Positions 1,927 to 35,666 of a stretch of DNA of 35,910 nt are shown piece by piece (position 1 is the first letter of the stretch; every line of letters begins with the position of its first letter). The stretch is from Candidatus Woesearchaeota archaeon. GTDB taxonomy: Archaea; Nanobdellota; Nanobdellia; Woesearchaeales; JAZDKJ01. The position numbers and the translations under genes are program-made. The DNA is taken from the NCBI GenBank assembly GCA_043815525.1, contig JBDRIZ010000050.1, forward strand, positions 1-35,910, given 5' to 3'. The notes under the pieces were generated by a model. The model worked only from the letters and a program-made list of their open reading frames with translations. It searched no databases and had not been told where the DNA came from.

Positions 1927-1931
1927 AATGC

Positions 1932-3956
1932 ATGACCAAGGTTGCTGTTGTCGCGTGTGATGGATATGATAAAGTAGATTTGGCCATTGGTCGCGCAATC
2001 AGCCTTCTTGGAGGCATAAACGCTTTTGTTAAAAAGAAGCAGAAAATTTTGATTAAACCAAACTTGTGCGATCCGTTGCCTCCTGACAAGGCTGCAACTA
2101 CTCATCCTGAAGTTGCAAAATCTGTTATTGGAATTGTACTGGGGACTGGTGCAACCCCTGTTGTTGGCGAGCTTTCCGCAGGCAGCATACCTGGCAGGAC
2201 TGAAGAGGCTTTTGTTGCCACAGGCATGAAAGACGTCTGCGCTTCCACAGGGACAAGACTTGTTGATTTTCAGAAAGGTAGCTTTGTTCAGCAACATATC
2301 AAGGAGTATCTATTCCTTGAGAAAACCGACTTTGCAGAAGCTGTCCTTGACTCAGATGCAATAATCAACCTTCCAAAGCTAAAGACTCACGGTGCATGTT
2401 ACCTCACTGGTTGCGTAAAGAATCTTTTTGGGTGTATCCATCCTGAAGAGAGGGAGTATATTCATTCGCATGGTGAGAACTCCCTCAACAATGGTGTGGT
2501 GGATATTTTTTCTGTTGTCAAGAACAAGGTGGTATTGAATATTATGGACGCAGTAGTTGCAATGGAGGGTGATGAAGGCCCAAGCTACGGCAACCCAAAG
2601 AGGTTGGGTTATATTATTGCTTCCACCGATGCTGTGGCAGCAGATGCTGTCGCAGCGAAAATTACAAATCACAATCCAATGGAGATACCGATAATAAGCG
2701 ATTGCCATCACCGCAGGCTTGGCTGCGGCATCCTCAATGACATAGAAATCGTCGGAGATGGCTTTCGCCAGGTGCTTGATTTCAAGGTCCACACAAACTA
2801 CCTAAACAGGCATGACAAGGATAAAAAATCAAGGCTGCAGCCAGTAATTACATCTGCCTGCACGAGATGCTCTGCTTGCGAGAAGAGCTGCCCTGCTCAG
2901 GCGATTTCCTATAGTGATGATAAGGCAAGGTTTGAAATCGACCAAATAAAGTGCATCAAGTGCTATTGCTGCCTCGAGGTGTGCATCTTTGCGGCAATAA
3001 AGCTTGAGACTTCTGCGAGGCCAGCAGACCTTATTCGCCTCGGCCTAAACTGCAACCACAAGTGCCTGTTCTGCACTGTTGGTTTGGACAGGACTCCTGA
3101 TCTGTCCACAAAAGAGGTAATGAACCTCATCGATGTTTTGGCTGCGAATGGTTCGCAGAAACTTGCTTTTACCGGCGGAGAACCAACTTTGAGGCCTGAC
3201 CTTTTTGCTCTGGTGGCATACGCACGATCAAGGGGGATTAAGATAATTGAGTTGCAGACCAACGCTTCAGAAATTTCCAAAGCAGGCTATGCAAAAGCAA
3301 TAACTGACGCTGGAATCAGCCATTTCATGGTCGCCCTGCACTCGGACAAGGAAGAGGTTTACAACAAGCTTACACAAAGCAGGCATTTCAAAAACGCTGT
3401 TGGAGGAGTAAAAAATCTGCTTAAGTTTCCTGTAACAATAACAATTTCGCATGTGATAAATTCAGAGAACTATAAGGGCCTTGAGTCGTTTGTCAATTTT
3501 GTGCATTCAGAATTTCTTGCAAAACCATGCATTTATTTTGGTTTTGTGAGGCCGAATGGCACTGCAAAGGCAAACAAGTGGATTGTTCCAAAGATGAGCC
3601 TTGTCGAGCCATACCTGCATAAGGCTTTTGCAAAATGCGCAGCTCTTGGGATTGTTTTCATGGTTGAGGGTTTGCCTTTATGCTACATGCAGGGTTACGA
3701 GCAGCATAACGACGAGACAAGGCGCCTGCTCTGTTCTCCGGCTGTGCATCTCGAGGCAGGTGTTGTAAGAGATGACACTCATAAGAGGCATCTTGTGGAC
3801 AATAAAGGAGAGGCAGAGTGCTGCGATGTCTGCAGCCTGTCCAAACTGTGCCCGAGAGTCTGGAAAGAGTATTCTGACATCTACGGGACTGGCGAGCTTT
3901 TTCCTGTATTTGACGAGAAACTAAAGGATAGTCTGAAGGTGTTTTTCAGTGGTTGA
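1932..3956 (+). CDS. tri-domain fusion: DUF362 + 2x[4Fe-4S] ferredoxin + small-family radical SAM
   Basis: The N-terminus has DUF362 hallmarks: KVAVVACDGYD, ILIKPNLCDP...ATTHPEV, LPKLKTHG...TGCVKNLFG, DAVVAMEGDEGPSYGNP. The ferredoxin motifs CTRCSACEKSCP and CIKCYCCLEVC start at nt 2859. The rSAM core has CNHKCLFC (nt 3051-3074), FTGGEPTLRPD, LPLCYMQGYE and CDVCSLSKLCPRVWKEY. AGGAG lies 9 nt upstream of the ATG. Confidence 0.92.
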   Translation: MTKVAVVACDGYDKVDLAIGRAISLLGGINAFVKKKQKILIKPNLCDPLPPDKAATTHPEVAKSVIGIVLGTGATPVVGELSAGSIPGRTEEAFVATGMKDVCASTGTRLVDFQKGSFVQQHIKEYLFLEKTDFAEAVLDSDAIINLPKLKTHGACYLTGCVKNLFGCIHPEEREYIHSHGENSLNNGVVDIFSVVKNKVVLNIMDAVVAMEGDEGPSYGNPKRLGYIIASTDAVAADAVAAKITNHNPMEIPIISDCHHRRLGCGILNDIEIVGDGFRQVLDFKVHTNYLNRHDKDKKSRLQPVITSACTRCSACEKSCPAQAISYSDDKARFEIDQIKCIKCYCCLEVCIFAAIKLETSARPADLIRLGLNCNHKCLFCTVGLDRTPDLSTKEVMNLIDVLAANGSQKLAFTGGEPTLRPDLFALVAYARSRGIKIIELQTNASEISKAGYAKAITDAGISHFMVALHSDKEEVYNKLTQSRHFKNAVGGVKNLLKFPVTITISHVINSENYKGLESFVNFVHSEFLAKPCIYFGFVRPNGTAKANKWIVPKMSLVEPYLHKAFAKCAALGIVFMVEGLPLCYMQGYEQHNDETRRLLCSPAVHLEAGVVRDDTHKRHLVDNKGEAECCDVCSLSKLCPRVWKEYSDIYGTGELFPVFDEKLKDSLKVFFSG

Positions 3957-4776
3957 CTTAGGCATTGGAGACAGATGCAACAGCAGTTGCATAATGTGCA
4001 CAACAGTGAGGCCAGAGGACAAAAAGGTGGAGAACCGCATGCTCTCAAAGGAAGAGGTCTTTTCGATGATTGACAAAATGGAGAGGCCACCTTACATAGC
4101 TATCACAGGTGGCGAGCCTACAATAAGAAAAGACTTAACCGAGATAGTAGGTCATGCCAGAAATCGTTTTCCAGCTGCAGAGATAAAGCTTTTGACAAAC
4201 GCCAGGATGGCCAGCTATCCTGACTACGCAAACGACTTGCTCAGCACAGGTATTGATGTGTATATAATCCCTTTGCACAGCCATCACCCTGACCTTCATG
4301 ATTTTGTAACAAGGACAAAAGGAAGCTTTGTTCAGACCGTACAGGGCATCAGGAATTTATCAAAGGCAAAGATCGAGATAAGGATAGTCATCCATGGGAT
4401 TAACTATCCATTCCTTCCAGAGACTGCAGAGTTCATCAGGGATAATTTCCCCGGCGCCTCGGTTGTTATGATTTATTTTGACATAATTGGCAGCGCATTC
4501 ATCAACAGGGATCGGCTTGTTGTGCAGATGACCAGGATAGCACCTTATCTCGAAAAGGCTATTGATGTCTTGCAGCAGAATGACATCCATACCTATCATT
4601 TTCCTTTATGCGTCCTTGGCCTGCGCTACCGCGATAGTGCCAAAGGTGTGACTGTTGTTGGTCACAGGATAATGTTCGCAGACAGTTGTGCAGCATGCAG
4701 CATGAAGTCTAAGTGTTGCGGGATTTGGAAAGCTTATGCAAAGCTGGTCGGTACCGGAGAGTTCAAGCCAATATGA
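3949..4776 (+). CDS. radical SAM protein, small paralogue family (short type)
   Basis: The GTG start overlaps the upstream stop by 8 nt. Motifs: CNSSCIMC, ITGGEPTIRKD, LHSHHPDLHDFVTRTKGSFVQTVQGIRNL, FPLCVLG, CAACSMKSKCCGIWKAYAKLVGTGEF. Confidence 0.9.
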   Translation: MVDLGIGDRCNSSCIMCTTVRPEDKKVENRMLSKEEVFSMIDKMERPPYIAITGGEPTIRKDLTEIVGHARNRFPAAEIKLLTNARMASYPDYANDLLSTGIDVYIIPLHSHHPDLHDFVTRTKGSFVQTVQGIRNLSKAKIEIRIVIHGINYPFLPETAEFIRDNFPGASVVMIYFDIIGSAFINRDRLVVQMTRIAPYLEKAIDVLQQNDIHTYHFPLCVLGLRYRDSAKGVTVVGHRIMFADSCAACSMKSKCCGIWKAYAKLVGTGEFKPI

Positions 4777-6137
4777 AACGAGTTGTTTTGGTCTGGCCTT
4801 TTGACCACTGCCACTCGCCTAGCCTTTCTCTTTTGTACCAGGCAAAGATATTGAATGGTTCCTATGATGTTTCCGTTGTTTATTCAAACCAGCTTTTCTC
4901 TTCTGATAATCTTAGTCTGCCTCTTGAGGTGCAAGAAGAGCCTGAGCGTAGCCTAAAAAAGGTTGCAAGCGTGGTTGCCAAGCTGGATCCTGATTACGTA
5001 TGCATCGGAAGCTACAGGCAGCACACTCCTTTTATTGACAGGTTTGCCAAGCAGTTCCGGATGCAGCATGATGCTGCCTTGATTGCAACCGGCTATGTCC
5101 CGACATTTTCTCCAGAGGAGATGCTTTCTTTGACACCTGAGATTGAATTCATTCTTCGCGGCGAATCTGAGCGCTCGCTTAAGAATTTGTTGGACAGTCT
5201 TTCCAAATCACAAAGTCAGTCTGAAGTGAAAGGGCTTTCTATGAAAAAAGATGGAGTCTTCCATCACAACCCGACCGACAGAATTGAAGATTTGGATTCA
5301 CTGCCTTTGTTTGATTTTGAGGATATTGTGGGAAACAGGCCAAAAAGGATTGACATCCGCTCTTCTCTGGGTTGCATTATGGACTGCCGCTTCTGCGGTC
5401 TTCACAAGATGTGGCCAAGGCCTGTCAGGTATCATAGCGAAGATTATGTGCTTCGCCAAATCAAGCATCTGGACAGCCTGTATTCCATGGAGTTTGTGCA
5501 TTTTATAGACGAGATGTTTCTCTGTAATGTCAAAAGGGCAGAGTCTCTTGCGCAAGCCATCCACAGGAATTTTCCTTATCTTAAATGGGGTTGCATGTTC
5601 AGAAATGATACAGTTAGCGAGTCTGTAGCAAGCCTGCTGAAAGATTCTGGCTTGGTTAACGCAGCTGTTGGAGTGGAATCCAACAACCCAAAGGTGTTGC
5701 AGTTCCTGCAAAAGACCAAGTCGCCATCCAGCTACCTCGCAGGCATTAACAAGAATATTGACATGCTAAAGGAGAAGCTTGAGTTCCTTGAGTTGGGTTT
5801 TATCACAGGCACTCCTGTTGAGACTGCGTCAGACATCCTTTCGCTGATTGAGTTTGTGCAGGATATTAAAAATGACAGGAAAGAGCTGAAGGACCTGAGG
5901 ATAGCGCTTGGAAGGCTTGTCATCTACGCAGGTTCGGATCTCTATTCAAGAATTGGTCAGTTCAACATGGTCAAGGATGAGATGAGGTATTCTGCATACC
6001 AGAAATTCTTCGAAGCAGGCTATGACCGCTTGTTCTGGGCTGTTCCGTGGAACTATCTTGCAGAAAATAAGAACTTCAGGAGCCATGCAGACTACATGGA
6101 GATTCTATCCAAAGCTTTCGAGGCTGCAAGAACATGA
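4773..6137 (+). CDS. B12-binding-domain-type (class B-like) radical SAM protein
   Basis: The ORF track gives 4713..6137. ATG 4773 forms an ATGA overlap with the upstream stop (MKRVVLVWPF...). The N-terminal Rossmann-like region carries RGESERSLKNLLDSL, followed by SSLGCIMDCRFCGL (CX3CX2C) about 215 aa in. Confidence 0.88.
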   Translation: MKRVVLVWPFDHCHSPSLSLLYQAKILNGSYDVSVVYSNQLFSSDNLSLPLEVQEEPERSLKKVASVVAKLDPDYVCIGSYRQHTPFIDRFAKQFRMQHDAALIATGYVPTFSPEEMLSLTPEIEFILRGESERSLKNLLDSLSKSQSQSEVKGLSMKKDGVFHHNPTDRIEDLDSLPLFDFEDIVGNRPKRIDIRSSLGCIMDCRFCGLHKMWPRPVRYHSEDYVLRQIKHLDSLYSMEFVHFIDEMFLCNVKRAESLAQAIHRNFPYLKWGCMFRNDTVSESVASLLKDSGLVNAAVGVESNNPKVLQFLQKTKSPSSYLAGINKNIDMLKEKLEFLELGFITGTPVETASDILSLIEFVQDIKNDRKELKDLRIALGRLVIYAGSDLYSRIGQFNMVKDEMRYSAYQKFFEAGYDRLFWAVPWNYLAENKNFRSHADYMEILSKAFEAART

Positions 6138-15301: not shown

Positions 15302-15302
15302 C

Positions 15303-19334: not shown

Positions 19335-20897
19335 ATGAAGTTAAAACTTATTTTTCCGCCTTTCGAAGATGTCTTTAAGGCTCGTATTCCTTTCGTTCCA
19401 GTTGGGATATCAACATTGTTTTCATATCTCAAGGCCGAAGGTATGGATGTTGAACAAGATGACTTGAATGTTAGGACTGCATTTTACAACCAGACCCATG
19501 ATTCCCAAATCAGCGTTTTTTTTGATAAGCGTCGATTGACTGATTTTTTAGATGGTATATCTGGTGACCTACTGGATGGGGCTTGCCAAAGGATTATGGA
19601 TCTTACTCAAATTAAAAGGTATGATATGGTAGGATTCTCAATTATTCAAGGTGCCCAGCTACAACCAGCTCTGGCCTTGGCGAAGAAAATTAAGGAAGAT
19701 ATTGGGTGCAAGATCCTGTTTGGGGGTCAGCAGGCAGCTAGGAACTTGGTTGAGCAGTATGATTTTGTTGACTATGCAGTTCTTGGAGAAGGCCAGGTTC
19801 CGGTGAAGATGCTTTGTGAGAGCATTGAGGGCAACAGGTCTTTTGACAACATTCCAAGGTTTGTATACAGGCAATCAGGAAAAGTATTTGAGAATCAAGG
19901 AAATTCCTGGCTTGGAGTAAATCAGTCTCCAGCTCCGGATTTCGAGGGTTTGCCGCTTCAAATGTACAAGGAGATGAAACATAAGTTCGGTAATGAATAT
20001 GAATGTTATGACATGCTGCTATTGCCATACTATTTTATGGAAGGTTGCACAGGGCATTGTTTCTTCTGTGCTCCGGAGCGTCAGAATTTGAACTTGAAGC
20101 CGGTTTCGCAAGTCATAGATGATTTGGTATATCTGAAAAGTAAGTTCCGAACCAAGTATTTTTATTTCTTGAATAATACTGTTAACGCAGATGAGCGTTA
20201 CCTCGAAGAGTTATGCAAGCGTATGGTTTCTGATGACCTTGATATTATGTGGAGCGATAGTGCAAGGCTTGATAACTTGGATAGCAGTTTGTTGTCTTTA
20301 ATGAAAGATTCGGGATGCGTTAAACTCGCATGGGGTCTGGAGGCTGGCAGTCAGAGTTTATTAGCAAAAATGAATAAGAATCTTAACCTTGCCGCCGCAG
20401 AAAGAATCTTACATATATCAAACGAGAAAGGAATATGGAATGAGGCAAATCTGATTATCGGATTTCCTTATGAGACTGAAGCAGAATTTTGCGAGACCGT
20501 CTCTTTCCTGGTAAGAAATAAGTCAATTGTTGATTGGATTAATGTGAGTCCTTTCTTTCTGAACCGTGGCACTGTGATGTACAAGTATCCGGAACGCTTC
20601 AGAATTAGGATTAATGGTTCTATTGCTGATGACAGCGGAACCCCTATATTCGATGAAATAGATGGCATGGATTGGCAGAAAAGAAAAGATGTTGTACTCA
20701 CAAGGGGGCAGGCAATAGTCAAGTTGTTGAATCAAAGGCATGATGTTCATCTTACGGACACACTATACTACTATTATGGCCAGCTTGAAGAAAAAGAATC
20801 AGTCCGCAGGGCTTTTGAGGATATTTACAAGCACGTCTGGTTTACCGAAGAGAATCCTGAAATGCGTCAGTTTGATTGTGCTGGCGGTAACCAGTGA
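19335..20897 (+). CDS. B12-binding-domain-type radical SAM protein (subfamily trio, member 1)
   Basis: Motifs: MKLKLIFPP...PVGISTLFSYLKAEGMDVEQDDLNVR, MEGCTGHCFFC (CX3CX2C), IMWSDSARLD, FDEIDGMDWQKRKD. The 3' end overlaps the convergent gene by 56 nt. Confidence 0.9.
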   Translation: MKLKLIFPPFEDVFKARIPFVPVGISTLFSYLKAEGMDVEQDDLNVRTAFYNQTHDSQISVFFDKRRLTDFLDGISGDLLDGACQRIMDLTQIKRYDMVGFSIIQGAQLQPALALAKKIKEDIGCKILFGGQQAARNLVEQYDFVDYAVLGEGQVPVKMLCESIEGNRSFDNIPRFVYRQSGKVFENQGNSWLGVNQSPAPDFEGLPLQMYKEMKHKFGNEYECYDMLLLPYYFMEGCTGHCFFCAPERQNLNLKPVSQVIDDLVYLKSKFRTKYFYFLNNTVNADERYLEELCKRMVSDDLDIMWSDSARLDNLDSSLLSLMKDSGCVKLAWGLEAGSQSLLAKMNKNLNLAAAERILHISNEKGIWNEANLIIGFPYETEAEFCETVSFLVRNKSIVDWINVSPFFLNRGTVMYKYPERFRIRINGSIADDSGTPIFDEIDGMDWQKRKDVVLTRGQAIVKLLNQRHDVHLTDTLYYYYGQLEEKESVRRAFEDIYKHVWFTEENPEMRQFDCAGGNQ

Positions 20898-22887: not shown

Positions 22888-24333
22888 CTATTTATCCACC
22901 CAATCATAACCATATATATGGAAATACGGCACCAGGTAGTCAAAATCAAGCCTGTCGTATATTCCTGAAGAAACATATTTTACTAACCTTGCGAAGTACA
23001 TTCCTTTATCCTTTCTCAGCATCTTGCCAAGCCTTTTGTTGAATGTCTCGATATAGGCTTTTCTCTGCAGCCATTCCACTGTGGCTGGAGAGACATCTTT
23101 TAGTCGCACAACAGCATCAAATGTTATGTTGTCTGCCTTCTGCCATCTTTTTTGGTCTATTGCACCGCCGTATTCGCTTATCAGCATCTGTCCTTCTTCT
23201 GTGAATGGCTTGTAGATAAAGAATGCTGACCTGTTGGCATCAAGCTCCTTTGCGAGCCTTATTGTACTCTGCATTGTTGAAACATTTTCTCCAGGTCCGC
23301 CAAGCATGTAGTATGCAGTTACCCCAACCCCATGCCTCTTGCACAGTTTGAAAATCCTCCTAATCTGGTCATTTGAAATGTTTTTGTTGTAAATCTTGTT
23401 TCGAATGAATGGGTCTCCTGCCTCCACTCCAATCCTGAGCAGTGCGCATCCTGACTTTGCGAGCATTCTTATTTTTTCCTCATCGAGGTGGTCTATTCTT
23501 GAGAACATGCTGTACCTGTGCTCTTCAGAGTCTGTTTCTTTCTTGTAGCTGTCAGTGAATTCTTGCAGCCATTTCCTGTTCATTGTTGGCACCTGGTCAA
23601 ACATCTGCACAAACCTCATGCCTCTTCCTTCATACTTGTTCCATTGGTACGCAATTTCCTTGGCATACGCTTGAGGGTTTCTCAGCCTGTAATAGTTTCC
23701 CTTTACGGATTTTGAGATTCCATGCGCGTCGCAGTATGTGCATTTGTACGGACAGCCTCTTGTTCCTATGCAATACATCATCCCAAGATAGTAGAAGTAT
23801 TTGTCAAGGTCAGGCCAGAGGTCCCAGTTTGGGGTTGGCATTTCATCGATATTTTTGATGAAGCATCCGCCTGGATTTTTTATTATTCCTCCTTTCTTCT
23901 TTGCCCATATTCCCTTGATTCCGGCCAGGCTTTTGTTTCCTGACAATCTGTCCATATATTCTGTCAGCGCAAATTCTCCGTCTCCTATGCAGACAGCATC
24001 CACCCAGGGTATGTCAAGTGTCTCCGCAGGTTTTATTGACGCATGATATCCGCCGCAGATTATCTTGGCATCAGATATTTCCTTAGCCTCTTCTGCTATT
24101 TTCTTAATGTACTGCATGTACATGGTGTTGCATGACATCCCAATAACATCCGGTCTGTGCCTTTGGATCATCCTGTGCAGGTGGCTTTTCCAGTGTCTTG
24201 TGTGAAAAGTCATGTCTGTGATGCTCGCATCGTGGTTTGTCCTTTCGTTGATATAGGTTGCAAGGTTTGTGATGGAGATGTCCAATGTGCTGAAGTCCCC
24301 TCCAAGAAGCGGATTGATAAACATAATTTTCAT
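22888..24333 (-). CDS. B12-binding-domain-type (class B-like) radical SAM protein
   Basis: Motifs: MKIMFINPLLGG..., DVIGMSCNTMY, KIICGGYHAS, CIGDGEFALTEYMDRL, GTRGCPYKCTYCDA (CX3CX2C), LRIGVEAGD. Confidence 0.92.
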   Translation of the reverse strand: MKIMFINPLLGGDFSTLDISITNLATYINERTNHDASITDMTFHTRHWKSHLHRMIQRHRPDVIGMSCNTMYMQYIKKIAEEAKEISDAKIICGGYHASIKPAETLDIPWVDAVCIGDGEFALTEYMDRLSGNKSLAGIKGIWAKKKGGIIKNPGGCFIKNIDEMPTPNWDLWPDLDKYFYYLGMMYCIGTRGCPYKCTYCDAHGISKSVKGNYYRLRNPQAYAKEIAYQWNKYEGRGMRFVQMFDQVPTMNRKWLQEFTDSYKKETDSEEHRYSMFSRIDHLDEEKIRMLAKSGCALLRIGVEAGDPFIRNKIYNKNISNDQIRRIFKLCKRHGVGVTAYYMLGGPGENVSTMQSTIRLAKELDANRSAFFIYKPFTEEGQMLISEYGGAIDQKRWQKADNITFDAVVRLKDVSPATVEWLQRKAYIETFNKRLGKMLRKDKGMYFARLVKYVSSGIYDRLDFDYLVPYFHIYGYDWVDK

Positions 24334-24408
24334 TGTAGTTCCAGTTTGAAGTATTGTATATAATTTTTGCTTAAGGTATATATAATAGCAGATTTACTCC
24401 AGCAATTG
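24334..24408. promoter_or_regulatory. divergent promoter region with two back-to-back TATA-like boxes
   Basis: tgtatataatttt (24355-24367) reads as aaaattatataca on the minus strand, 22 nt upstream of ATG 24333. gtatatataata (24376-24387) lies 22 nt upstream of ATG 24409. Neither start has an SD. Confidence 0.5.
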
Positions 24409-25968
24409 ATGAGAGTCAAGTTGATAGTCGCTCCGCAGACTAATCCTGACCCTTACTGGAAGCCCCTGCCTCCTTTGGGTGTTGCGACAATAACTTCATA
24501 TCTGCGCAGTAAAGGCTATGATGTCTCGCAGGACGATCTGGACATCAGGACAATTGTTGCTGACAGGACTGTCAGCGCTCCAGGCCAGAAGATTAATCTT
24601 AGTGTGTTCAGGGAGCAGGACAGGGTTAAAGAATATCTCCTTGGCAGTTCCGTCGATCCCTATCTGGAGAGCACTGTGAACAGGCTTCTTTCGTGGACTG
24701 ATTACAAAGGTTATGATGTTGTTGCCATATCCATGGGCATAAGATCGCACCAGCTGATGCCTGCGATGTGCATTGCAAAGAAGATAAAGGAGGAGACAGG
24801 CGCAGCAATTGTTGTCGGTGGCAGGAGAATTTACCCTGAAATCCTAAAAGACTACCAGTTTGTGGATTTCGGAATGCTTGCTGATACAGGAGAGAATTTT
24901 GAGAAGTTGCTTGGTTTTCTGTCAGGTAGCTCTGTCAAAAAATGGGATATTCCTTTTCTCATTTATCGCGATGGCGGGGAGATTAAGATTAATCCTCCAG
25001 ACTCCCTTGACATGGACTCAATAAGCCATCCTGATTATGATGGTCTGCCTCTGGATCTTTACAAGTACAAGCCCCACACAGAATTCCCAGGCCTTCGAGA
25101 AGCTGACGTGCTTATCCTTCCCTATCATGCTATTGAGGGTTGTGTCGGCAAGTGCGCTTTTTGCAGTGGTCATGCAGGAAAGCTTCGCAACAAGTCTCCA
25201 AAGAAGATTGGCGATGATATTGGAAAAATCAAGAAAAAGTTGGGAACAGCAAACTTCATGTTCATGAGTAATGAGATTAACATCAGCTATGATTTCATGG
25301 AGAATTTTGCCAAGTCTTTGATCCCGCACAAAATCTTGTGGACTGATTCTGCAAGGCTTGACGTCTTTGACAAGGAACTTATGAGGCTTACAGCAGAATC
25401 CGGTTGCATCCAGCTTACCTACGGCTTGGAATCAGGCAGTCAGAGGCTGCTAGACAAAATGTGTAAGGGGGTGGATTTGAAAAAGGCAGCCGACATCCTA
25501 AAACATGGCTATAAATTTGGCATCTGGAGCCATGTGAATGTGATTGCAGGCCTTCCATTCGAGACAGATGAGGACATAAAGGAAACAATTGGATTCCTCA
25601 ATGAGAACGCGCAATACATCAATTCTCTTACTGTGACAAAATTCTATGTTGCCTATAACTCTCCAATCGAGAATAATCCAGAAAAATTCGGCTTGGTGCT
25701 AAGAAAGGAAACCCAGGAGAGGTTTTCGAATGTTGTGCTTGACAGCTTCATTTTTGATGAGATTGATGGATTGAAGTGGGAAGAGAAGAAGCTGCAGCAG
25801 GAGAAGTCAGTTGAGATGATTGACAAAGGCTATAAGAAAAAGGCAAGGGCTGTTGTTCCAATCCCATCTCTTTTCTATCTCTACTCGGTTCTTGGCAGGG
25901 ATATGCAAAAAATCGAGGAGACTGTTGATAAGTGCAAAATGCTGAAGTCATATGGTATGTATGGCTAA
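24409..25968 (+). CDS. B12-binding-domain-type radical SAM protein (subfamily trio, member 2)
   Basis: The ORF track gives 24367..25968 (TTG). ATG 24409 gives MRVKLIVAPQ...PPLGVATITSYLRSKGYDVSQDDLDIR, matching the other trio N-termini. Further motifs: IEGCVGKCAFC, ILWTDSARLD, FDEIDGLKWEEKKL. Confidence 0.9.
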   Translation: MRVKLIVAPQTNPDPYWKPLPPLGVATITSYLRSKGYDVSQDDLDIRTIVADRTVSAPGQKINLSVFREQDRVKEYLLGSSVDPYLESTVNRLLSWTDYKGYDVVAISMGIRSHQLMPAMCIAKKIKEETGAAIVVGGRRIYPEILKDYQFVDFGMLADTGENFEKLLGFLSGSSVKKWDIPFLIYRDGGEIKINPPDSLDMDSISHPDYDGLPLDLYKYKPHTEFPGLREADVLILPYHAIEGCVGKCAFCSGHAGKLRNKSPKKIGDDIGKIKKKLGTANFMFMSNEINISYDFMENFAKSLIPHKILWTDSARLDVFDKELMRLTAESGCIQLTYGLESGSQRLLDKMCKGVDLKKAADILKHGYKFGIWSHVNVIAGLPFETDEDIKETIGFLNENAQYINSLTVTKFYVAYNSPIENNPEKFGLVLRKETQERFSNVVLDSFIFDEIDGLKWEEKKLQQEKSVEMIDKGYKKKARAVVPIPSLFYLYSVLGRDMQKIEETVDKCKMLKSYGMYG

Positions 25969-26148: not shown

Positions 26149-27267
26149 ATGGAGCATGGTGTTGCGATTGATGTTGGCACCACAAACTTAAGCATCTCTT
26201 TGGTAAATCTATCCACCAAGGCTGTTCTTGGCAGTCTTTCCTTGCCAAATCCCCAGTCAAAATATGGTGCAGACATCCTGACAAGGTATTCTGCTGCTGT
26301 TAAGGACTGTTCTGTCAGGCTGGAGCTGCACTCAATGATTGTTAGTGTGTTAAGGGACTCTGTCCGCAAGATTTGTGCAGACCATCCTTCATGCAAGGTT
26401 GGCAGGCTTGTGATAGTGGGCAACACAATCATGTATGCTTTTCTTATGAACGAGGATTGCATGAATTTTATCAGGAGAAAAACGACTATTTCTGATTATC
26501 ATGCTGTTGAAGGCCCTGTGATTGTTTCAGGAGTGAAAACCATGGTATTCCCTCCTTTGGCAAGCTATGTTGGCTCTGATGCGCTTGCAGTCCTTTTGAG
26601 CACAGGAATCCACAAATCTGAATCAGTTCAGATGGTTGTTGACTTTGGCACTAACTCTGAGATTCTTGTCGGAAATAGGGACAGAATACTGCTAACCTCT
26701 GTTGCAGGCGGTGCAGCTTTTGAGGACCCTTCAATGTCTTTCAGCAGCCAAGCTGCAGATGGTGCAGTATATCAGGCAAGCTACTATGAAGGTTCGTTCG
26801 CATTCAAATTTCTTGGCAAAAAGGCCTTGTCATTATGCGGGTCAGGGATACTTGACATTGTGGCAGAGGCAAAAAGGCATGGGTTGATTGACGCTTCAGG
26901 AAGGTTGGCAGGTAATGGTATCATGCTGACAGAATCAATAAGTATCACCCAAAAGGATATAAGGGCAGTCCAGCTTGCAAAAGCTGCCACAAGGGCTGCA
27001 ATTGATATTCTGACTGCAAGCACAGGTAAGGTAACGAAGCTTTATGTGGCAGGTAATTTCGGCAATTACCTGAATCTTGACAATGCCAGGTTAATAGGTT
27101 TGATTCCAGCTCTTGACAGCCAGATAGTAAAAGACTGCGCTGTCAAGGGCGCTGCTATGTTGCTTGAAGACCTGGATTTGGCTCAGATAATTTCAAGGCT
27201 TGAGTTTGTTGACTTGCCCAGCCATCCCTCATTCCAGGAGCGTTTCATTGGCAGTATGGTATTATGA
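26149..27267 (+). CDS. ASKHA-fold ATPase, DUF4445 / corrinoid reductive-activase-like (RACo/RamA C-terminal domain type), without an Fe-S domain
   Basis: The phosphate-1 motif is AIDVGTTNLS, the phosphate-2 motif is VVDFGTNSEILVG, followed by SVAGGAAFE and LCGSGILD. At 372 aa it has no Cys cluster resembling a [2Fe-2S] or [4Fe-4S] ferredoxin domain. Confidence 0.85.
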   Translation: MEHGVAIDVGTTNLSISLVNLSTKAVLGSLSLPNPQSKYGADILTRYSAAVKDCSVRLELHSMIVSVLRDSVRKICADHPSCKVGRLVIVGNTIMYAFLMNEDCMNFIRRKTTISDYHAVEGPVIVSGVKTMVFPPLASYVGSDALAVLLSTGIHKSESVQMVVDFGTNSEILVGNRDRILLTSVAGGAAFEDPSMSFSSQAADGAVYQASYYEGSFAFKFLGKKALSLCGSGILDIVAEAKRHGLIDASGRLAGNGIMLTESISITQKDIRAVQLAKAATRAAIDILTASTGKVTKLYVAGNFGNYLNLDNARLIGLIPALDSQIVKDCAVKGAAMLLEDLDLAQIISRLEFVDLPSHPSFQERFIGSMVL

Positions 27268-28610
27268 GGGTCTGCCTGGTTTATCCGAAATTCAAGTATG
27301 CCTGCGGAGACCCTCCCTTAGGTATTCTGTACATTGCTGCTTATCTGCGCCAGCATGAAATTCCTGTTTCAGTGATTGACACTACATTTAATCCTTCGAT
27401 TTATTTTGTTAGGCAAAAGTTGTTTGATCTGAAGCCAGGAATCGTTGGAATCTACTGCGACACCATGATGTATAATGACTGCCTGAGTATTGCTGCCTTG
27501 GCAAAATCAGTTAATGCAAATGTAATTGTTGGAGGTCCGCACGCTGCAGTGGCTCCTGAGACTTTGATAATGGACAGGAATGTTGACAGTGTATGTGTTG
27601 GTGAGGCAGAACTTACTATGCTTGATTATGTCAAGGCATTGCAGAAAGGCGCTAGTCTTTCGTCTGTTGATGGCATCTGGCACAAGAGCGGCAAGGCTGT
27701 TGTTAAGAACAGGCAGCGCAAGCCAATACAAGATTTGGACAGCCTTCCGTTCCCTGCAAGGGACTTGATTGATTTTGAGAGGCATATTTCGAACTGGTAC
27801 CACTTCAGCCATGTTTCAGGCATTCGAGGCACTTCAATCCTTGCCTCGAGGGGCTGTGTATTCTCGTGCTCCTACTGCCAGCCAACCCTTGACAGGATTT
27901 TTGGGAAAGGGCTAAGGCACAGGTCTCCTGAGAATGTCGTGCAAGAGCTTTTGCAATTGCATAAAATTTACAAAATTAACGCCTTCCATCTTCAGGATGA
28001 TACAGCAACAGTCTCAGATGGCTGGCTCTTTGATTTCTGCAGGCTCATGAGCAGGAAGAATTTTGTTTGGTCATGCAACTCCAGGATTGACACGCTTAAT
28101 GAGGAGAAGGTTATTGCGATGAAGAAGGCTGGTGTTAGGGAGATATATCTTGGAATCGAGAGCGCTTCAGACAGGATTTTGAAGGAAATCTACAACAAGA
28201 CCGCCTCAATAGACCCAAAAGATGCAATCGACATTCTGAAGAGGCATGGATTGAGGGCATTGGGGTATTTCATGCTTGGCGCTCCGACAGAGACATATGA
28301 CGAGGCTGAGTCAACAATCGATTTCGCAGTCAAATCTGACTTGGACATGGCCACTTTTTCAATCTCTACCCCTTTTCCTGGCACCTACATGCACAGCGCT
28401 TTTGTCAGGACTGGTTGTTTTCATGATTTTTCAGAATATGACTACTACCGCTCGAATAAGCACAATATCTCTGAAATACCTGGACGTGATCTGGAGCTGT
28501 TGAAGAGAAAAGCTTACCTCAGGTTTTACCTGCATCCAAAAAGGGTTGGAGGCACTCTGTCTGAGCTAAGGCAGCTTGGCAAGGTCTTGTTAAAGCTTAA
28601 GAGATTTTAG
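27264..28610 (+). CDS. B12-binding-domain-type (class B-like) radical SAM protein
   Basis: ATGA overlap with the upstream gene. Motifs: MRVCLVYPKF...PPLGILYIAAYLRQHEIPVSVID, VIVGGPHA, CVGEAELTMLDYVKAL, ASRGCVFSCSYCQP, YLGIESASD. Confidence 0.92.
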   Translation: MRVCLVYPKFKYACGDPPLGILYIAAYLRQHEIPVSVIDTTFNPSIYFVRQKLFDLKPGIVGIYCDTMMYNDCLSIAALAKSVNANVIVGGPHAAVAPETLIMDRNVDSVCVGEAELTMLDYVKALQKGASLSSVDGIWHKSGKAVVKNRQRKPIQDLDSLPFPARDLIDFERHISNWYHFSHVSGIRGTSILASRGCVFSCSYCQPTLDRIFGKGLRHRSPENVVQELLQLHKIYKINAFHLQDDTATVSDGWLFDFCRLMSRKNFVWSCNSRIDTLNEEKVIAMKKAGVREIYLGIESASDRILKEIYNKTASIDPKDAIDILKRHGLRALGYFMLGAPTETYDEAESTIDFAVKSDLDMATFSISTPFPGTYMHSAFVRTGCFHDFSEYDYYRSNKHNISEIPGRDLELLKRKAYLRFYLHPKRVGGTLSELRQLGKVLLKLKRF

Positions 28611-29244
28611 GTATAGCTATATTTGCGAATTGTACCTCATCTCTTAAATTCTGGCTGCCATTATTTTTGTTGAATCCTGCTATGTCAAAGATTTGGACTG
28701 AGATTGTTGCGTTTGTCTTAAGCATTTTTGCAGGTAGTTCAATCTCAATATAATCTGGCCCTGAGTCAATTCCCAGTCCGGCAATTGTTGCTGGCGCAGG
28801 CTTATTTCCAATATGCTTCCAGACGTATATTCTTGAGTTTGGGATTATCCTTATCTGGTGGTTTTCCTGTCCGAATATGTATAATTCGTATGCAAGCTGG
28901 TCATTTAGGTAGCCGTATGTTGTGAATTTTATGTATGCCTTGTCTTTGTCATTGCTGTAGTACAGGTCTTTTAGGTCCGCCCCCATGTAATCCAGTTTTG
29001 CATCTCCTTTTGGGCTTGTGGCAATCGGCTCTATCCCTGTCCAGTCAATGTCCAGGTTTGAAAAAGCGTCTGTCAATGCCTCTTGGTCTCCAAATTGAGT
29101 TGCTTGGCCTGTAATCGTTTTGTCATGTTTGTCGGTTCTTACTTTGGCAAGCAGGACCAAGGCAAGTATTGCCACTGCAACAACCAGCACAAGTTTACCC
29201 CAGTGTTGTTTGCTGTGATGAGCCAGTTTCTTTTTTCCGACCAT
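28597..29244 (-). CDS. signal-anchored extracytoplasmic protein, paralogue family A (4 of 4)
   Basis: The ORF is open to 29364 (TTG). ATG 29244 gives MVGKKKLAHHSKQHWGKLVLVVAVAILALVLLA, a short tail plus TM as in the paralogues. Blocks: ADLKDLYYSNDKDKAYIKFTT and YELYIFGQENHQIRIIPNSRIYVWKH. The 3' end overlaps the convergent rSAM gene by 14 nt. Confidence 0.75.
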   Translation of the reverse strand: MVGKKKLAHHSKQHWGKLVLVVAVAILALVLLAKVRTDKHDKTITGQATQFGDQEALTDAFSNLDIDWTGIEPIATSPKGDAKLDYMGADLKDLYYSNDKDKAYIKFTTYGYLNDQLAYELYIFGQENHQIRIIPNSRIYVWKHIGNKPAPATIAGLGIDSGPDYIEIELPAKMLKTNATISVQIFDIAGFNKNNGSQNLRDEVQFANIAIPKIS

Positions 29245-29368
29245 AATAAGTGGAGTCAACTTTTTTGGTGCTACGCATACAACTTGTAGGTTTTCCTCCT
29301 CGCGAAGTCTTTGATGAGGAAAACCGTTAGTGCGCTTATCAGCAAACAGTTGATTTATCCCCAATAGG

Positions 29369-29379
29369 TTTTATATATT
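29369..29379 (+). promoter_or_regulatory. TATA-like box
   Basis: ttttatatatt ends 25 nt upstream of ATG 29405. Confidence 0.45.
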
Positions 29380-29404
29380 GTCTATTATTTAAGCATTTGC
29401 AGGG

Positions 29405-30421
29405 ATGGACTCAAAAAGCCGTGTCTTTGCTGTTCTTGAAGGAAATCTTCCTGACAGGGTTCCAGTCTTCCCTGTGGTCGATGAGTATCACGCGCCAAAA
29501 GTTCTTGGCTATGCTGCAAAGGATTGCCTTGTTGATGGAATGAAGATGGCAGAAAGCCTGTTGGCAGCTCTTCGCCTCTATAAGTATGATGGGATTATTG
29601 CCAATCTCGGTCCTGGAAGAGACCCATACAAACAGCTCGGCTGCACAGTTGATCTTGACAGTGGTGACGTAGCGCTTTTCACAGATAATTTAGTTAAAAG
29701 TGAAGAAGACCTGTCAAAGGTTGTGCCACCAGATCTTTTCGGAACAGGCATGCTTGCTCCTGTTCAGCATATCTTGGATAAGGTTGGTGACACTCATTTT
29801 GTTGTGGGGTCTGTGCGAGCTCCTTTTGAGATATCTTACATACAAAGAGGTTCCATGGCCTTCATGTCTGACATTTATGAGAATCCTGGATTTGTCTGTA
29901 AAATGATTAATGTGGCAAAGAAAATCACTCTTGCTCTTGGCGATGCTTTGATTGAGTCAGGAGTCCATGCCCTTGTCGTTAAGGATTCAGTTGCCTCTGC
30001 CTCTATGATATCGCCAGAGCATTACAGTGAGTTTGCTTTCCCTCTTGAGCAGGAAGTAATCAGCCATTTCAGGAAAAAAGTGCCTGTCATCCTTCACATC
30101 TGCAGGAATTCAGAGCCTTTGCTGCAGAAGATGGCAAAGACTCGTGCATCTGTACTGGAAATTGACTCGCTTGTTGACCTGGCAAAAGCAAAAGATCTTG
30201 TTGGCAACAAGGTGGTTATCAAGGGAAATGTTGATTCTGTCGAAGTGCTCGAGAGAGGCAGCACAGAAGTCATAAGGAGATCTGTCGCGAACTGCATGAA
30301 TGCTGCAAAAGCACATGGTAACTATATCCTAAGCACAGGCGATTCTGTACCTAGAGGTTGCAGTATGGATAGTATGAAGAGCTTTGTTGGTCATGGCAAG
30401 GTGCTGGGTCGATATGGATGA
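29405..30421 (+). CDS. uroporphyrinogen-decarboxylase-fold methyltransferase (MtaA/CmuA-like corrinoid-dependent methyltransferase)
   Basis: The N-terminus SRVFAVLEGNLPDRVPVFP is typical of the MtaA/URO-D family. An H231-x-C233 ... C319 pattern (VILHICRN ... VPRGCSMD) matches the HxC...C zinc motif of MT2-type enzymes. Confidence 0.88.
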   Translation: MDSKSRVFAVLEGNLPDRVPVFPVVDEYHAPKVLGYAAKDCLVDGMKMAESLLAALRLYKYDGIIANLGPGRDPYKQLGCTVDLDSGDVALFTDNLVKSEEDLSKVVPPDLFGTGMLAPVQHILDKVGDTHFVVGSVRAPFEISYIQRGSMAFMSDIYENPGFVCKMINVAKKITLALGDALIESGVHALVVKDSVASASMISPEHYSEFAFPLEQEVISHFRKKVPVILHICRNSEPLLQKMAKTRASVLEIDSLVDLAKAKDLVGNKVVIKGNVDSVEVLERGSTEVIRRSVANCMNAAKAHGNYILSTGDSVPRGCSMDSMKSFVGHGKVLGRYG

Positions 30422-31044
30422 ATGATCTCATTAATGCAATAATTGCTGGAGAAAGACAAAAGGCAAAGGCAATCACTGAGTCAATTATTGAAGAGGATTC
30501 TGCGTACGAGATAATCACTAACTCCATATCTAAGGCAATGGAAGTTGTAGGCCAGAGGTACGAGACAGGGGAATACTTTATCCCTGAAATGATTCGTTCT
30601 GCAAAGTGCGCTGAACTTGCTTTTTCTATACTGAAGCCGCATATTAGATTGGAGTCGGTTCAGGAGGGAAAAAAGGTTGTCATCGGAACTGTTAAGGGAG
30701 ATGTCCACGATATTGGCAAGAATATCATGAAATCTGTTCTTGAATGCTCAGGGTTTACAGTGTATGACCTTGGTGTGAATGTCCATCCAAAGCAGTTTAT
30801 TGATAAGATTATTGAAACAGGCAGCACCTTGCTGCTCCTCTCCGCCCTTACAACTGCGACAAGTCTTGCCATGCAGGAGGTCTTGTCCGAATTGGTAAGG
30901 CTTGGCATGCGTGAGAGGGTGAAGGTTCTTGTTGGGGGGGTTTCTGTTAGCGAGTCGTTTGCCAGGAGTATTGGCGCTGACTATTATGGAAGTTCGATTA
31001 AGGAGACTTTGGAGTTTTGCAAAAGTGTGCCTAATTCTGTTTGA
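30418..31044 (+). CDS. corrinoid (cobalamin-binding) protein, MtaC/MtbC-like
   Basis: ATGA overlap with the upstream gene. An N-terminal helical cap is followed by a Rossmann B12 domain with DxHxxG (DVHDIG, aa 95-100, nt 30700-30717), SALT (SxL) and VLVGGVS (GG). Confidence 0.9.
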   Translation: MNDLINAIIAGERQKAKAITESIIEEDSAYEIITNSISKAMEVVGQRYETGEYFIPEMIRSAKCAELAFSILKPHIRLESVQEGKKVVIGTVKGDVHDIGKNIMKSVLECSGFTVYDLGVNVHPKQFIDKIIETGSTLLLLSALTTATSLAMQEVLSELVRLGMRERVKVLVGGVSVSESFARSIGADYYGSSIKETLEFCKSVPNSV

Positions 31045-32420: not shown

Positions 32421-33947
32421 ATGAACATCAAGCTTCTCCTTGCCCCTGATTTTATTCCGCGGACCAAGTTTGCCTTGCCTCCGATGGGCATTGCCTCCAT
32501 TTCCGCAATGTTGAGGAGTGATGGCCATAAGGTTGAACAGGACGACCTGGACATCAAGTCGAGGAATATCGAATTATCTGTTTTCTCAAGGACAGATGAA
32601 ATCGAGCGCTATTTGTTGAAAAACAGTTCTTTTCCAGAACTTGAGCATACTCTTGACTCTCTCCTCAACCTCACCAGGACGAAAGGTTTTGACGTTTTTG
32701 GCCTTTCTGTTGCAGAGCCTTCCCATCTTGTTGCTGCTTTGTGCCTTGCAAAAAGGATTAAGGACCTGACAAAGGCGATTATTGTGATTGGTGGCAGGGT
32801 CTCAATTAGCCAGTCTTTGCTCAGGTACGGATTTATTGATTATGTTATCACCGGTGACGCAGAGCATTCGTTCTCTTCTCTTTTGCGCTGCCTCGAAGGC
32901 AAATCCAGTCTGCAGAATGTTCCTGGTTTGGCCTATAGGGATACTGCAGTAAAGCAAAATCCGGTTGTCCAAAGTGACTTGGAATCAATCCCTGCTCCTG
33001 ACTTTGAAGGCCTGCCAATTGAACTGTATTGCCATAACGCCTTTGACACTGTTGACCCTTACTATGAGACATACAACAAGCCTTTCCCGCTTGGCTCAGA
33101 TTCCAAGGTTTTGATGCTGCCGTACCTTCTCACCAAGGGTTGTAGTTTCTCGTGCTCTTTTTGCGGTGTTTCAGCCTCAAAAAAACAAAGCATATTGTAT
33201 AAGAGCGCTGAAAAGATTGCAGCCGAACTTGATAGTTTGAAGAAGAAATACAGGACAAGATATTTCTTTCTTATGGACAGCACCCTGAACTGCAGTTATA
33301 AGTGGCTTGAAGATGTGTGTGGCAAGATTAGTTCAGCTGATATCTTGTGGTCTGACTCTGCGACTCCCATGCACTTTCCTGCAGGCCTTCTCAGGAAGAT
33401 GCGCTCTGCAGGCTGCGTTAGGCTTACCTGGGGTGTTGAGTCTTTGTCAGATCCCATTCTGAAAAAGATGAGTAAGCCATTTACTGCAGAAATCGCAAAA
33501 TCCACCTTGAAGGACTCACATGATGCAGGCATCTGGAACTACACAAACTGGGTGGCTGGATTTCCGCACGAGACTGAGTCTATGCTTAACGAGACGCTAG
33601 CAAATATAAGAACCAGTAAAGCCTGGATAGATGACTACACTGTCACAGGCTTTATTTTGCAGCAGTCAGAAATCTACAACAGTCCGCAGAAGTATTGCAT
33701 TAATATTGGCGCAAAGTCTTCCTATCTTGACTCTGCAAAGGACAGGATGGAGACCGATTCCTTTGATGAGATTGGCGGCCTTTCATGGAAAGATAAGCAG
33801 AAGCAGATTGATGATTTTAGGCGAAGAATGGTGGCCGCTCTTGGCAATAGCTTGAATCCATTGCCAATGCATACTGTGTTTTACCTTTATGACAAGTTCC
33901 ATGATAAGGAGAGTGTACTGTCATGGCTTAGGAGTATAGGCTTATGA
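32421..33947 (+). CDS. B12-binding-domain-type radical SAM protein (subfamily trio, member 3)
   Basis: Motifs: MNIKLLLAPDF...PPMGIASISAMLRSDGHKVEQDDLDIK, TKGCSFSCSFC, ILWSDSATPM, FDEIGGLSWKDKQK. Confidence 0.9.
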   Translation: MNIKLLLAPDFIPRTKFALPPMGIASISAMLRSDGHKVEQDDLDIKSRNIELSVFSRTDEIERYLLKNSSFPELEHTLDSLLNLTRTKGFDVFGLSVAEPSHLVAALCLAKRIKDLTKAIIVIGGRVSISQSLLRYGFIDYVITGDAEHSFSSLLRCLEGKSSLQNVPGLAYRDTAVKQNPVVQSDLESIPAPDFEGLPIELYCHNAFDTVDPYYETYNKPFPLGSDSKVLMLPYLLTKGCSFSCSFCGVSASKKQSILYKSAEKIAAELDSLKKKYRTRYFFLMDSTLNCSYKWLEDVCGKISSADILWSDSATPMHFPAGLLRKMRSAGCVRLTWGVESLSDPILKKMSKPFTAEIAKSTLKDSHDAGIWNYTNWVAGFPHETESMLNETLANIRTSKAWIDDYTVTGFILQQSEIYNSPQKYCINIGAKSSYLDSAKDRMETDSFDEIGGLSWKDKQKQIDDFRRRMVAALGNSLNPLPMHTVFYLYDKFHDKESVLSWLRSIGL

Positions 33948-34857: not shown

Positions 34858-35185
34858 TCCTTATCCTCTTTATTCCCTTCTTAAGGTATGGCAGGTCTTT
34901 TTCTATAACCATCCATACGCGTTCGATATTTACTCCAAAGTACGCGTGGCTTAATATGTCTCTTAGGCCTGCAATGTCTTTCCAGGGGATATCCGGGTAT
35001 TTCTCTCTAAAACCTGATGGAATGTTTTTGACAGCTTCTCCTATGACCTCCAGTTGCCTTATCACTGCGCTTTGCCTCAGCTTGTCTTTGGAAAATTTTT
35101 CCTTATTCAGTCCCAGGGTGAATTCCTCAATGTTTCTTATGCTTTCCAGGATGTCATCTACAAATAATCCTATGTCTCTTTTCAT
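34811..35185 (-). CDS. hepT: HepT-type HEPN (DUF86) toxin
   Basis: The 124-aa protein starts MKRDIGLFVDDILESIRNIEEF and has an Rx4H HEPN motif (RDILSH). An ATGA overlap links it to the upstream nucleotidyltransferase gene. The 3' end overlaps the convergent rSAM gene by 47 nt. Confidence 0.9.
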   Translation of the reverse strand: MKRDIGLFVDDILESIRNIEEFTLGLNKEKFSKDKLRQSAVIRQLEVIGEAVKNIPSGFREKYPDIPWKDIAGLRDILSHAYFGVNIERVWMVIEKDLPYLKKGIKRIRTSEYKTHPKDKSLRS

Positions 35186-35655: not shown

Positions 35656-35666
35656 AAGGTGTTTAT

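Follow-up and report, generated by a model that had tools for sequence, protein, structure and literature searches.

What is a set of corrinoid methyltransferase genes doing among genes for B12-binding radical S-adenosylmethionine (SAM) enzymes (B12-rSAMs)? The question is raised by a stretch of 35,910 nt, here called the window, which is the complete contig of one metagenome-assembled genome (MAG), Candidatus Woesearchaeota archaeon. Its gene map was built from six-frame open reading frames (ORFs) and Pfam and NCBIfam matches, and the three ORFs in question, here called the trio, all lie where an initial annotation of this DNA had placed them. They are predicted to encode a short RACo/RamA-type ASKHA ATPase with no Fe-S domain (26149..27267, plus strand, 372 amino acids), an MtaA-like corrinoid methyltransferase of the URO-D fold (29405..30421, plus strand, 338 amino acids) and a His-on corrinoid protein, or CoP (30418..31044, plus strand, 208 amino acids). 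This corrinoid module with an Fe-S-less activator recurs beside class B rSAM and glycosyltransferase genes in other genomes, and the pairing is apparently both conserved and undescribed.

The neighbourhoods of the URO-D clade were collected from exact-protein look-ups with precomputed Pfam annotation and from a scan of GTDB representative genomes (27 loci), which were annotated with hidden Markov models built from the sequences of this analysis. Thirty loci had enough flanking sequence to be informative, and 26 of them have at least one B12-rSAM gene, of the HpnJ/BchE-like kind, no more than 10 kb from the URO-D gene. The co-occurrence of the trio with B12-rSAM genes thus holds in homologous loci and is not that of chance neighbours; the alternative offered earlier, a piece of a methylotrophy or O-demethylase system that is here by coincidence, is disfavoured by the same recurrence. 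The rSAM-linked loci usually also encode glycosyltransferases (GT2 and PMT_2), along with a short RACo of the same kind. Their hosts are Thermoleophilia, Gaiellales, other Actinomycetota MAGs and 'Bacterium BMS3Abin01' and, beyond the Actinomycetota, DPANN-like archaea and others.

The typical Actinomycetota cassette consists of the URO-D gene, the CoP gene and zero to three B12-rSAM genes of a first type (A-type), all in one direction, followed in the opposite direction by PMT_2, an rSAM of about 365 amino acids, GT2 and a B12-rSAM of a second type (B-type), and then by a short RACo of 388-408 amino acids, also without Fe-S, in the original direction. This cassette is always found between core genes (the atp operon, murA-like, proB, proA, nadD, LytR_C, rsfS), and no one-carbon (C1) metabolism genes lie within 10 kb on either side of it in Thermoleophilia. 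The A-type gene is located 3' of CoP on the same strand, with gaps of -4 to about 360 nt by estimated starts; the two genes overlap in L006/L017 and L029, the CoP stop overlapping the rSAM start in L006 and L029. It is absent from four Actinomycetota loci, while the block of B-type, GT2 and rSAM genes is present wherever the contig reaches. PMT_2 occurs in most cassette loci, and the window's copy, a GT-C membrane glycosyltransferase (Pfam PF13231; 20842..22560, minus strand), is 37% identical to one in the DPANN-like locus L001.

L001, with a URO-D protein of 60% identity, shares with the window orthologues of URO-D, CoP and the short RACo and five more genes: the rSAMs at 24367 and 32421, PMT_2, a GDSL-like gene and a divergently oriented membrane protein gene. 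The short RACo and URO-D genes stand side by side in L122. At L120, URO-D and CoP adjoin genes for an rSAM, a GT2, a B12-rSAM, a Polysacc_synt flippase and a polysaccharide deacetylase. A PAPS_reduct-family protein of 436 amino acids is also encoded there immediately 5' of URO-D (3184-4494), with a SAM methyltransferase nearby, and may hint at sulfur chemistry on a glycan.

On a neighbour-joining tree rooted on distant homologues, the rSAM association appears on three branches, formed by the Actinomycetota, by L120 and by the window with L001 and L122. It is present in both main branches of the URO-D clade and in two domains of life, and gene order is otherwise different. Overlapping coding regions point the same way. 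An ATGA overlap joins the RACo stop to an rSAM start (27264-27267), as the initial annotation had noted, and another joins the URO-D stop to the CoP start (30418-30421). Each trio gene is, in some lineage, translationally coupled to or directly 5' of a B12-rSAM gene. From gene content and neighbourhood we consider it quite probable that the trio and the B12-rSAM and glycosyltransferase genes act in one pathway, and this pathway most likely builds or decorates a cell-envelope glycoconjugate.

The reverse association does not hold. A metagenome scan with a profile of the A-type rSAM returned 80 loci at 29-43% identity, and the trio (URO-D, CoP and RACo) was found in one of them, L048, which carries the full cassette. 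Since the trio predicts B12-rSAMs but B12-rSAMs do not predict the trio, the trio appears to be the accessory of one type of pathway. It had been proposed earlier that the module serves the rSAM enzymes; the linkage on which that proposal drew is conserved, but a general service module for class B rSAMs is ruled out by the 79 related rSAM loci that have no trio. Clusters of B12-rSAM genes are themselves common in environmental metagenomes (L040-L119; examples are L078, L049 and L061), with 4-7 HpnJ/BchE-like genes per 15-20 kb, and with one exception no corrinoid protein, URO-D or RACo genes were seen in these clusters.

Nor do the window and its relatives supply the partners of a conventional three-component corrinoid system, in which a first methyltransferase (MT1), a CoP and a second methyltransferase (MT2) cooperate: a second methyltransferase was not found. 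The earlier claim that the window lacks an MT1 or an MtrH-like protein stands, as no ORF of at least 80 amino acids matches an MtaB-, MttB- or MtrH-type family, and more broadly no MtaB, MttB, MtgB, MtrH/MetH-type protein or second methyltransferase-type URO-D is encoded in the window. No MT1 and no pterin or coenzyme M (CoM) methyltransferase was detected in the Pfam-annotated 20-kb relatives. These negatives cover the window and its 20-kb relatives, and genes elsewhere in the genomes lie outside that scope. The possibility that the trio is always accompanied by an MT1 and a CoM or tetrahydrofolate methyltransferase just beyond such a window is not borne out in Thermoleophilia. A second URO-D protein in L009, L010 and L121 was considered as the missing MT1 and rejected, being a true HemE (415 bits) in the company of SucD and AglB. 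In these loci, which are of the Hydrothermarchaeota type, the genes after URO-D and CoP encode a SucD-like subunit of a CoA ligase, HemE and the oligosaccharyltransferase AglB/STT3; here the pair has another conserved context, one that contains no rSAM.

We examined the three trio proteins for the properties expected of a corrinoid methyl-transfer system. All belong to known superfamilies yet fall outside the named families. The assignment of 29405..30421 to the URO-D fold was upheld by Pfam (E 2e-52). The best NCBIfam matches of this protein are to MtaA/CmuA-type models at 94-124 bits, below cutoffs of 235-600 (for MtaA/MtbA-type models 106 bits against a cutoff of 400, 94 against 600, 121 against 235 and 124 against 244), and it reaches none of the families NF040654, NF041608, TIGR01463 and PRK06252. 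A relative from Thermoleophilia scores 170 bits against a cutoff of 235. An AlphaFold2 model made from an alignment of 30 clade members (predicted local distance difference test, pLDDT, 93.5) has the (beta/alpha)8 barrel fold, and its top Foldseek match in the PDB is MtaA of M. mazei (4AY7; template modelling score, TM, 0.85). By sequence the protein also matches MtaA 4AY7 (E 5e-31) far better than the MT1 CdmB (E 8e-8). NCBIfam scores and PDB matches serve here as a proxy for placement relative to MtbA, MtsA, CmuA and MtvB. The clade itself is sharply bounded, comprising about 43 protein clusters at 43-64% identity, after which the next matches drop to 28%.

A zinc motif of the form HxC...C had been read from this sequence. 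Its HxC part is sound, with H231 and C233 invariant, but the downstream cysteines C297 and C319 are not conserved. The position of the third zinc ligand of MtaA (the Cys of LAPGCGI in 4AY7) is occupied throughout the clade by an invariant Asp, D313 (LSTGDS), so that the predicted metal motif is H231-x-C233...D313.

The identification of 30418..31044 as a DxHxxG corrinoid protein was likewise correct, the motif being DVHDIG at residues 95-100. The protein has both the cap (PF02607, B12-binding_2; E 2.6e-17) and the Rossmann B12 domain (PF02310, B12-binding; E 3e-21), and the motif GD[IV]H[ND][IV]G is kept in 32 of 32 distinct clade copies. It is MtgC/MtbC-like, with scores under the cutoffs (TIGR02370, 151 bits against 215; MtgC_2, 155 against 370; MtbC, 145 against 350). 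Of the 30 loci with both genes, 29 have URO-D next to CoP, at gaps of -10 to 63 nt; the exception is L001, where a 138-amino-acid ORF and a GDSL-like gene lie between them.

The third member of the trio, a candidate Co(II)-to-Co(I) activator, shows clear matches to the RACo middle domain (PF17651, Raco_middle; E 1.4e-29) and to the RACo_C_ter/ASKHA domain (PF14574; E 9e-43), in agreement with its first description as an ASKHA/DUF4445 ATPase. It aligns to positions 210-472 of the 632-residue AcsV model without reaching the curated AcsV or RamA cutoffs, and the profile of its clade aligns to residues 207-616 of the 631-amino-acid RACo of C. hydrogenoformans (3ZYY; E 3e-100). The nucleotide-binding motifs reported for it, DVGTTN (residues 8-13), DFGTNSE (165-171) and GGAAFE (187-192), are present, and their core positions (D8-G10-T11, D165-G167-T168-N169 and G188-A190-E192) are invariant across 15 short-form relatives. 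The ferredoxin-type Fe-S domain is missing, as had been stated: the [2Fe-2S] domain and linker are absent, with no match to PF00111 or Fer4. The ORF is closed upstream, which leaves no room for an extension, and the 180-nt gap 5' of the gene encodes no domain. The nearest homologues (37-46% identity, 388-413 amino acids) all lack PF00111, and most of the more distant ones (460-640 amino acids) have the [2Fe-2S] domain and linker, indicating that the loss is a trait of the clade and not an artefact. No cysteine is conserved among the 15 aligned short-form relatives; the protein would therefore have no hidden Fe-S site and could not hold an electron-donating cluster. The electron must then come in trans.

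What might deliver that electron is suggested by a few loci. A different Fe-S-less RACo (P0085, 393 amino acids) is encoded in L036 (10001-11182) directly after rnfCDGEAB and a thioredoxin gene; activators of the short form thus seem able to pair with a low-potential electron system encoded apart from them. In L038/L039, the stop of the short-RACo gene is overlapped by a DUF362 gene that stands alone. We rejected DUF362 proteins as the general electron donor, as they are seen only in the window and L038/L039, and a DUF362 model found no match in the other URO-D-clade loci (L001-L039). The window's own DUF362 protein, a 674-amino-acid fusion by Pfam of DUF362, two [4Fe-4S] ferredoxin domains and a radical SAM domain (1932..3956, plus strand), is a weakly supported candidate for the electron source of the activator.

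Six B12-type rSAM genes had been counted in the window, and all six hold up (4713, 19335, 22888 on the minus strand, 24367, 27264 and 32421). The Pfam scores of the B12 domain are at or above threshold for 27264, 22888, 32421 and 19335 and below it for 4713 and 24367. The gene that overlaps the RACo stop (27264..28610, plus strand; B12-binding 65 bits, Radical_SAM 80 bits) is, among the rSAMs of the window, the one nearest to the A-type rSAM of the Actinomycetota cassettes (33-36% identity, 211-242 bits), in whose alignment the CxxxCxxC cysteines, C198-x3-C202-x2-C205, are invariant. Immediately 5' of the RACo gene is a B12-type rSAM (24367..25968, plus strand) that is 69% identical to the product of 49-1614 in L001; between that gene and the short RACo downstream of it lie one PMT_2 gene and one small ORF. 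Downstream of CoP, with one ATPase gene between, lies a third (32421..33947, plus strand), 61% identical to the product of 19523-21013 in L001. The gene at 19335..20897 (plus strand) is a paralogue of both, at 31-35% identity. An HpnJ/BchE-like gene (22888..24333, minus strand; B12-binding 63 bits, Radical_SAM 80 bits) has BchE and HpnJ as its top NCBIfam matches, below cutoff. The sixth (4713..6137, plus strand) is distant and its B12 domain weak (Radical_SAM 50 bits; B12-binding 26.9 bits, below threshold), and it scores 423 bits against a B12-rSAM model built in this analysis. Named rSAM families, such as HpnJ, BchE and PhpK, are not reached (for a window gene, BchE 161 bits against 481 and HpnJ 154 against 578; for the cassette B-type gene, 238 bits). 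The solved structures nearest to the cassette rSAMs are the AprD4 core, 9CCB, OxsB, TokK, TsrM and CysS, all of them distant. Rfam elements, cobalamin riboswitches among them, were not detected in the window or in five cassette loci.

We tentatively favour the reading that the trio is a working three-protein corrinoid methyl-transfer module, a conserved accessory of the B12-rSAM/glycosyltransferase cassette. The domains and motifs of all three proteins are intact and conserved clade-wide. CoP would carry cobalamin in the His-on form and cycle between Co(I) and CH3-Co(III), and the MtaA-like enzyme would shift a methyl group between this cobalamin and either a small nucleophile or a leaving group, bound at the enzyme's His-Cys-Asp metal site. 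Because the URO-D protein is closer to MtaA than to CdmB and keeps the HxC motif, the favoured direction is the MtaA-like one, in which CH3-Co(III) would donate to a heteroatom acceptor on a pathway intermediate; transfer from methylated CoP to an acceptor is a choice that we hold more loosely still. The radical reactions of the rSAM enzymes would then be supplemented by a non-radical methylation from the trio. After oxidative inactivation, the short RACo would use ATP to enable reduction of Co(II) to Co(I), and a separate protein of the ferredoxin type would deliver the electron in trans. Four parts of this scheme are inferred, namely which way the methyl group moves, what accepts it, where CoP obtains it and what donates the electron; possible methyl sources are SAM, a bifunctional MtsA-like mode of the methyltransferase and an rSAM partner.

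Several points weigh against this reading. None of the cassettes encodes an enzyme that would donate a methyl group to CoP, so the observed genes leave the cycle incomplete. URO-D-fold enzymes can also act as MT1, as do CdmB, CmuA and the O-demethylase MTI (PMC13222342). With Asp in place of Cys as the third metal ligand, thiol activation as in MtaA is not assured. URO-D and CoP occur without a nearby rSAM or RACo in four loci (L002/3, L008, L009/L121 and L010), so this pair is able to function in a different context. Synteny among the Actinomycetota loci reflects common descent, which reduces the number of independent observations to a few, perhaps three, and PMT_2 is common to the window and Thermoleophilia at the level of the family only. 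The basis of the reading is gene content, domain architectures, motifs and neighbourhood.

A rather unlikely rival would turn the system towards the rSAM enzymes themselves. Here the MtaA-like protein would act as an MT1 and load CoP from a donor other than SAM, and CoP would re-methylate the cob(I)alamin bound to the rSAM; in addition or instead, the short RACo would drive the reduction of Co(II) to Co(I) at each turnover, perhaps by way of the rSAM's own Fe-S cluster. Such a source of electrons would explain an activator that lacks Fe-S, a form of RACo that is specific to this clade. With no second methyltransferase in any cassette, the rSAMs are the only other methyl-cobalamin-handling proteins encoded, and one trio accompanies one to six B12-rSAMs, as expected of a shared service. 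The overlaps of RACo with an rSAM gene in the window and of CoP with an rSAM gene in L006 and L029 are in keeping with it. On the side of chemistry, class B rSAMs re-reduce cob(II)alamin at each turnover with an in vivo reductant that is only 'potentially' flavodoxin (PMC8992657), and a RamA-like protein is known to reactivate a client other than a CoP, the split MetH (PMC5764234). The idea has to contend, however, with the 79 of 80 related B12-rSAM loci that manage without a trio, including clusters of 5-7 genes, with URO-D and CoP pairs that occur apart from rSAMs and with the lack of the A-type rSAM in four Actinomycetota loci. HpnJ and BchE, neither of them a methylase, are the nearest relatives of the cassette rSAMs, and among solved structures it is AprD4, another non-methylase, that comes closest. 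Moreover, we know of no enzymatic precedent for methyl transfer from corrin to corrin between proteins, and solved structures of class B rSAMs have their cobalamin buried between the Rossmann domain and the barrel.

That the trio handles cobalamin itself is distinctly improbable. CoP would then store or receive salvaged corrinoid, the MtaA-like enzyme would set or remove the upper methyl ligand by a CblC-like, thiol-dependent dealkylation, and the Fe-S-less ATPase would serve as an ATP-dependent loading or exchange chaperone for apo-rSAMs, resembling the diol dehydratase reactivases. ASKHA-fold ATPases that exchange cobalamin do exist (DdrA/PduG). An activator with intact ATPase motifs and neither a redox centre nor a conserved cysteine would suit such a role, as would the presence among the hosts of a DPANN archaeon that has many B12 enzymes encoded at a single locus, and a trio co-located with B12 clients, not with C1-metabolism genes. 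Yet the end-to-end alignment with the middle and ATPase domains of RACo makes a RACo-like role on CoP the simplest interpretation; no B12 transport or adenosyltransferase genes and no cobalamin riboswitch were found in the loci searched, and most B12-rSAM clusters have no such module. We regard as very improbable the remaining explanation, that the trio is an unrelated fragment of a methylotrophy or O-demethylase system whose MT1 and MT2 partners lie at other places in the genome. The window covers one 35.9-kb contig of a MAG, genes of mobile type (the AAA_14/DUF4143 ATPase and HepT/MNT) lie in the region, and some clade members stand alone without rSAMs, all of which would be compatible with a stray origin. 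A stray fragment is nevertheless hard to reconcile with a co-location that recurs in 26 of 30 loci, spans two domains of life as well as three branches of the tree and persists in differing gene orders, with a Thermoleophilia cassette set between core genes and free of C1-metabolism genes within 10 kb, or with URO-D and RACo proteins that form tight clades apart from the curated MtaA, MtbA and RamA families.

Other genes of the window bear less directly on the trio. Divergent from the URO-D gene is a gene for a putative membrane-anchored protein (28597..29364, minus strand) with a hydrophobic segment visible in the translation and no Pfam or NCBIfam match; its true start is probably the Met at nt 29244. 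A 38%-identical homologue is encoded in L001 (9017-9466), where the called genes around it are on the minus strand, just upstream of the URO-D gene. Because that homologue adjoins URO-D, the protein may belong to the module in loci of the DPANN type. Between CoP and the rSAM at 32421 lies the AAA_14/DUF4143 ATPase gene (31031-32281, minus strand). The stretch of L001 examined has no AAA_14 gene between the equivalents of CoP and this rSAM, so that the gene may be an insertion; in its place L001 carries two PMT_2 genes, a DegT-type aminotransferase and another B12-rSAM. The contig ends with a HepT/MNT toxin-antitoxin pair (34811-35703, minus strand).

The first half of the window (760-18030) is taken up by ten tandem rSAM paralogues of about 300 amino acids, which are HxsC/HxsC4-like with all scores under the NCBIfam cutoffs. 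Interleaved with this array are two GDSL-like proteins (8735 and 10643), a DUF483 protein (11629), a TPR protein (15270) and several ORFs without a family match. An eleventh small rSAM (33944-34857) looks frameshifted and is either a pseudogene or an assembly error: its CxxxCxxC motif (CDNKCVFC, nt 34001) is in frame with an ATG at 33944, itself overlapping the stop codon of the gene at 32421-33947, and the remainder is in the ORF 34114-34857. With about 18 rSAM genes in 36 kb, the rSAM density is unusually high for a DPANN contig.

Class B rSAM enzymes are among the largest and least tractable groups of enzymes, catalyze both methylations and rearrangements, and act in the formation of antibiotics, lipids, cofactors and methyl-coenzyme M reductase. 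The flavodoxin system used with them in vitro is only 'potentially' physiological, and the upkeep of their cobalamin in vivo is unsettled (PMC8992657). The linkage of the trio to such genes offers a clonable system in which to ask whether methyl-cobalamin chemistry can come from outside the rSAM protein and whether a RACo-type ATPase can work without an Fe-S cluster of its own. It is also a route to the product of a glycoconjugate pathway whose cassette keeps its place on the chromosome across the subsurface Thermoleophilia loci that were examined and occurs in expanded form in a DPANN archaeon. If the trio does provide an extra methylation step, a corrinoid methyltransferase system would take part in the biosynthesis of envelope glycans and not in C1 energy metabolism, a role of which the literature search found no description. 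If it were instead a means of external cobalamin regeneration for class B rSAMs, through methyl groups not derived from SAM and/or ATP-coupled reduction of Co(II) to Co(I), which we think unlikely, it would be the first dedicated in vivo partner system for these enzymes.

A full-text literature search returned no class B rSAM described with a dedicated external CoP, methyltransferase and activator, and no description of a set of corrinoid methyltransferase, CoP and activator genes linked to B12-rSAM genes. The parts themselves have familiar counterparts. Like the MtaA/MtbA, MtaC/MtbC and RamA proteins of methanogens, the trio combines a URO-D TIM barrel bearing HxC, a CoP with a cap and a Rossmann domain with DxHxxG, and an ASKHA activator. 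Unlike those systems, it scores far under the equivalog and subfamily cutoffs, has Asp and not Cys as the third Zn ligand, lacks Fe-S in its activator and is accompanied by no MT1 of the MtaB, MtbB or MttB type and no CoM pathway genes nearby; its neighbours are B12-rSAMs and glycosyltransferases. In MtsA/MtsB of Methanosarcina, a single MtaA-type URO-D enzyme and one CoP perform both half-reactions, which provides a precedent for a system with one methyltransferase, although the host biology and gene neighbourhood differ.

The combination of a URO-D-fold methyltransferase, a small CoP and a RACo-type activator is also that of the chloromethane systems CdmBCA and CmuAB and of the Odm, Vdm and Mtv O-demethylases, which depend on an ATP-dependent activating enzyme of the RACo type (PMC13222342). 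Those systems always have an MT2 that forms methyl-H4folate, whereas the trio loci have none, and CdmB has no metal site, whereas the URO-D clade of the trio keeps HxC...D. With RACo itself (3ZYY; complex with CoFeSP, 4C1N) the short RACo is homologous end to end over the middle and ASKHA domains and keeps the nucleotide-binding motifs; it differs in lacking residues 1-206, which hold the [2Fe-2S] ferredoxin domain and linker, and any conserved Cys. RamA-like DUF4445 proteins reactivate the split methionine synthase of Phaeobacter and Desulfovibrio, so activators of the RACo/RamA type serve beyond methylotrophy (PMC5764234). Those proteins carry ferredoxin domains and have MetH as their client, whereas the trio loci have no MetH-like gene nearby. 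Finally, the rSAM neighbours of the trio share the architecture of B12-binding domain and CxxxCxxC radical SAM domain with the class B methylases TokK, Mmp10, CysS and GenK; the known methylases of this class are self-contained, SAM methylating the enzyme's own cob(I)alamin (PMC8992657).

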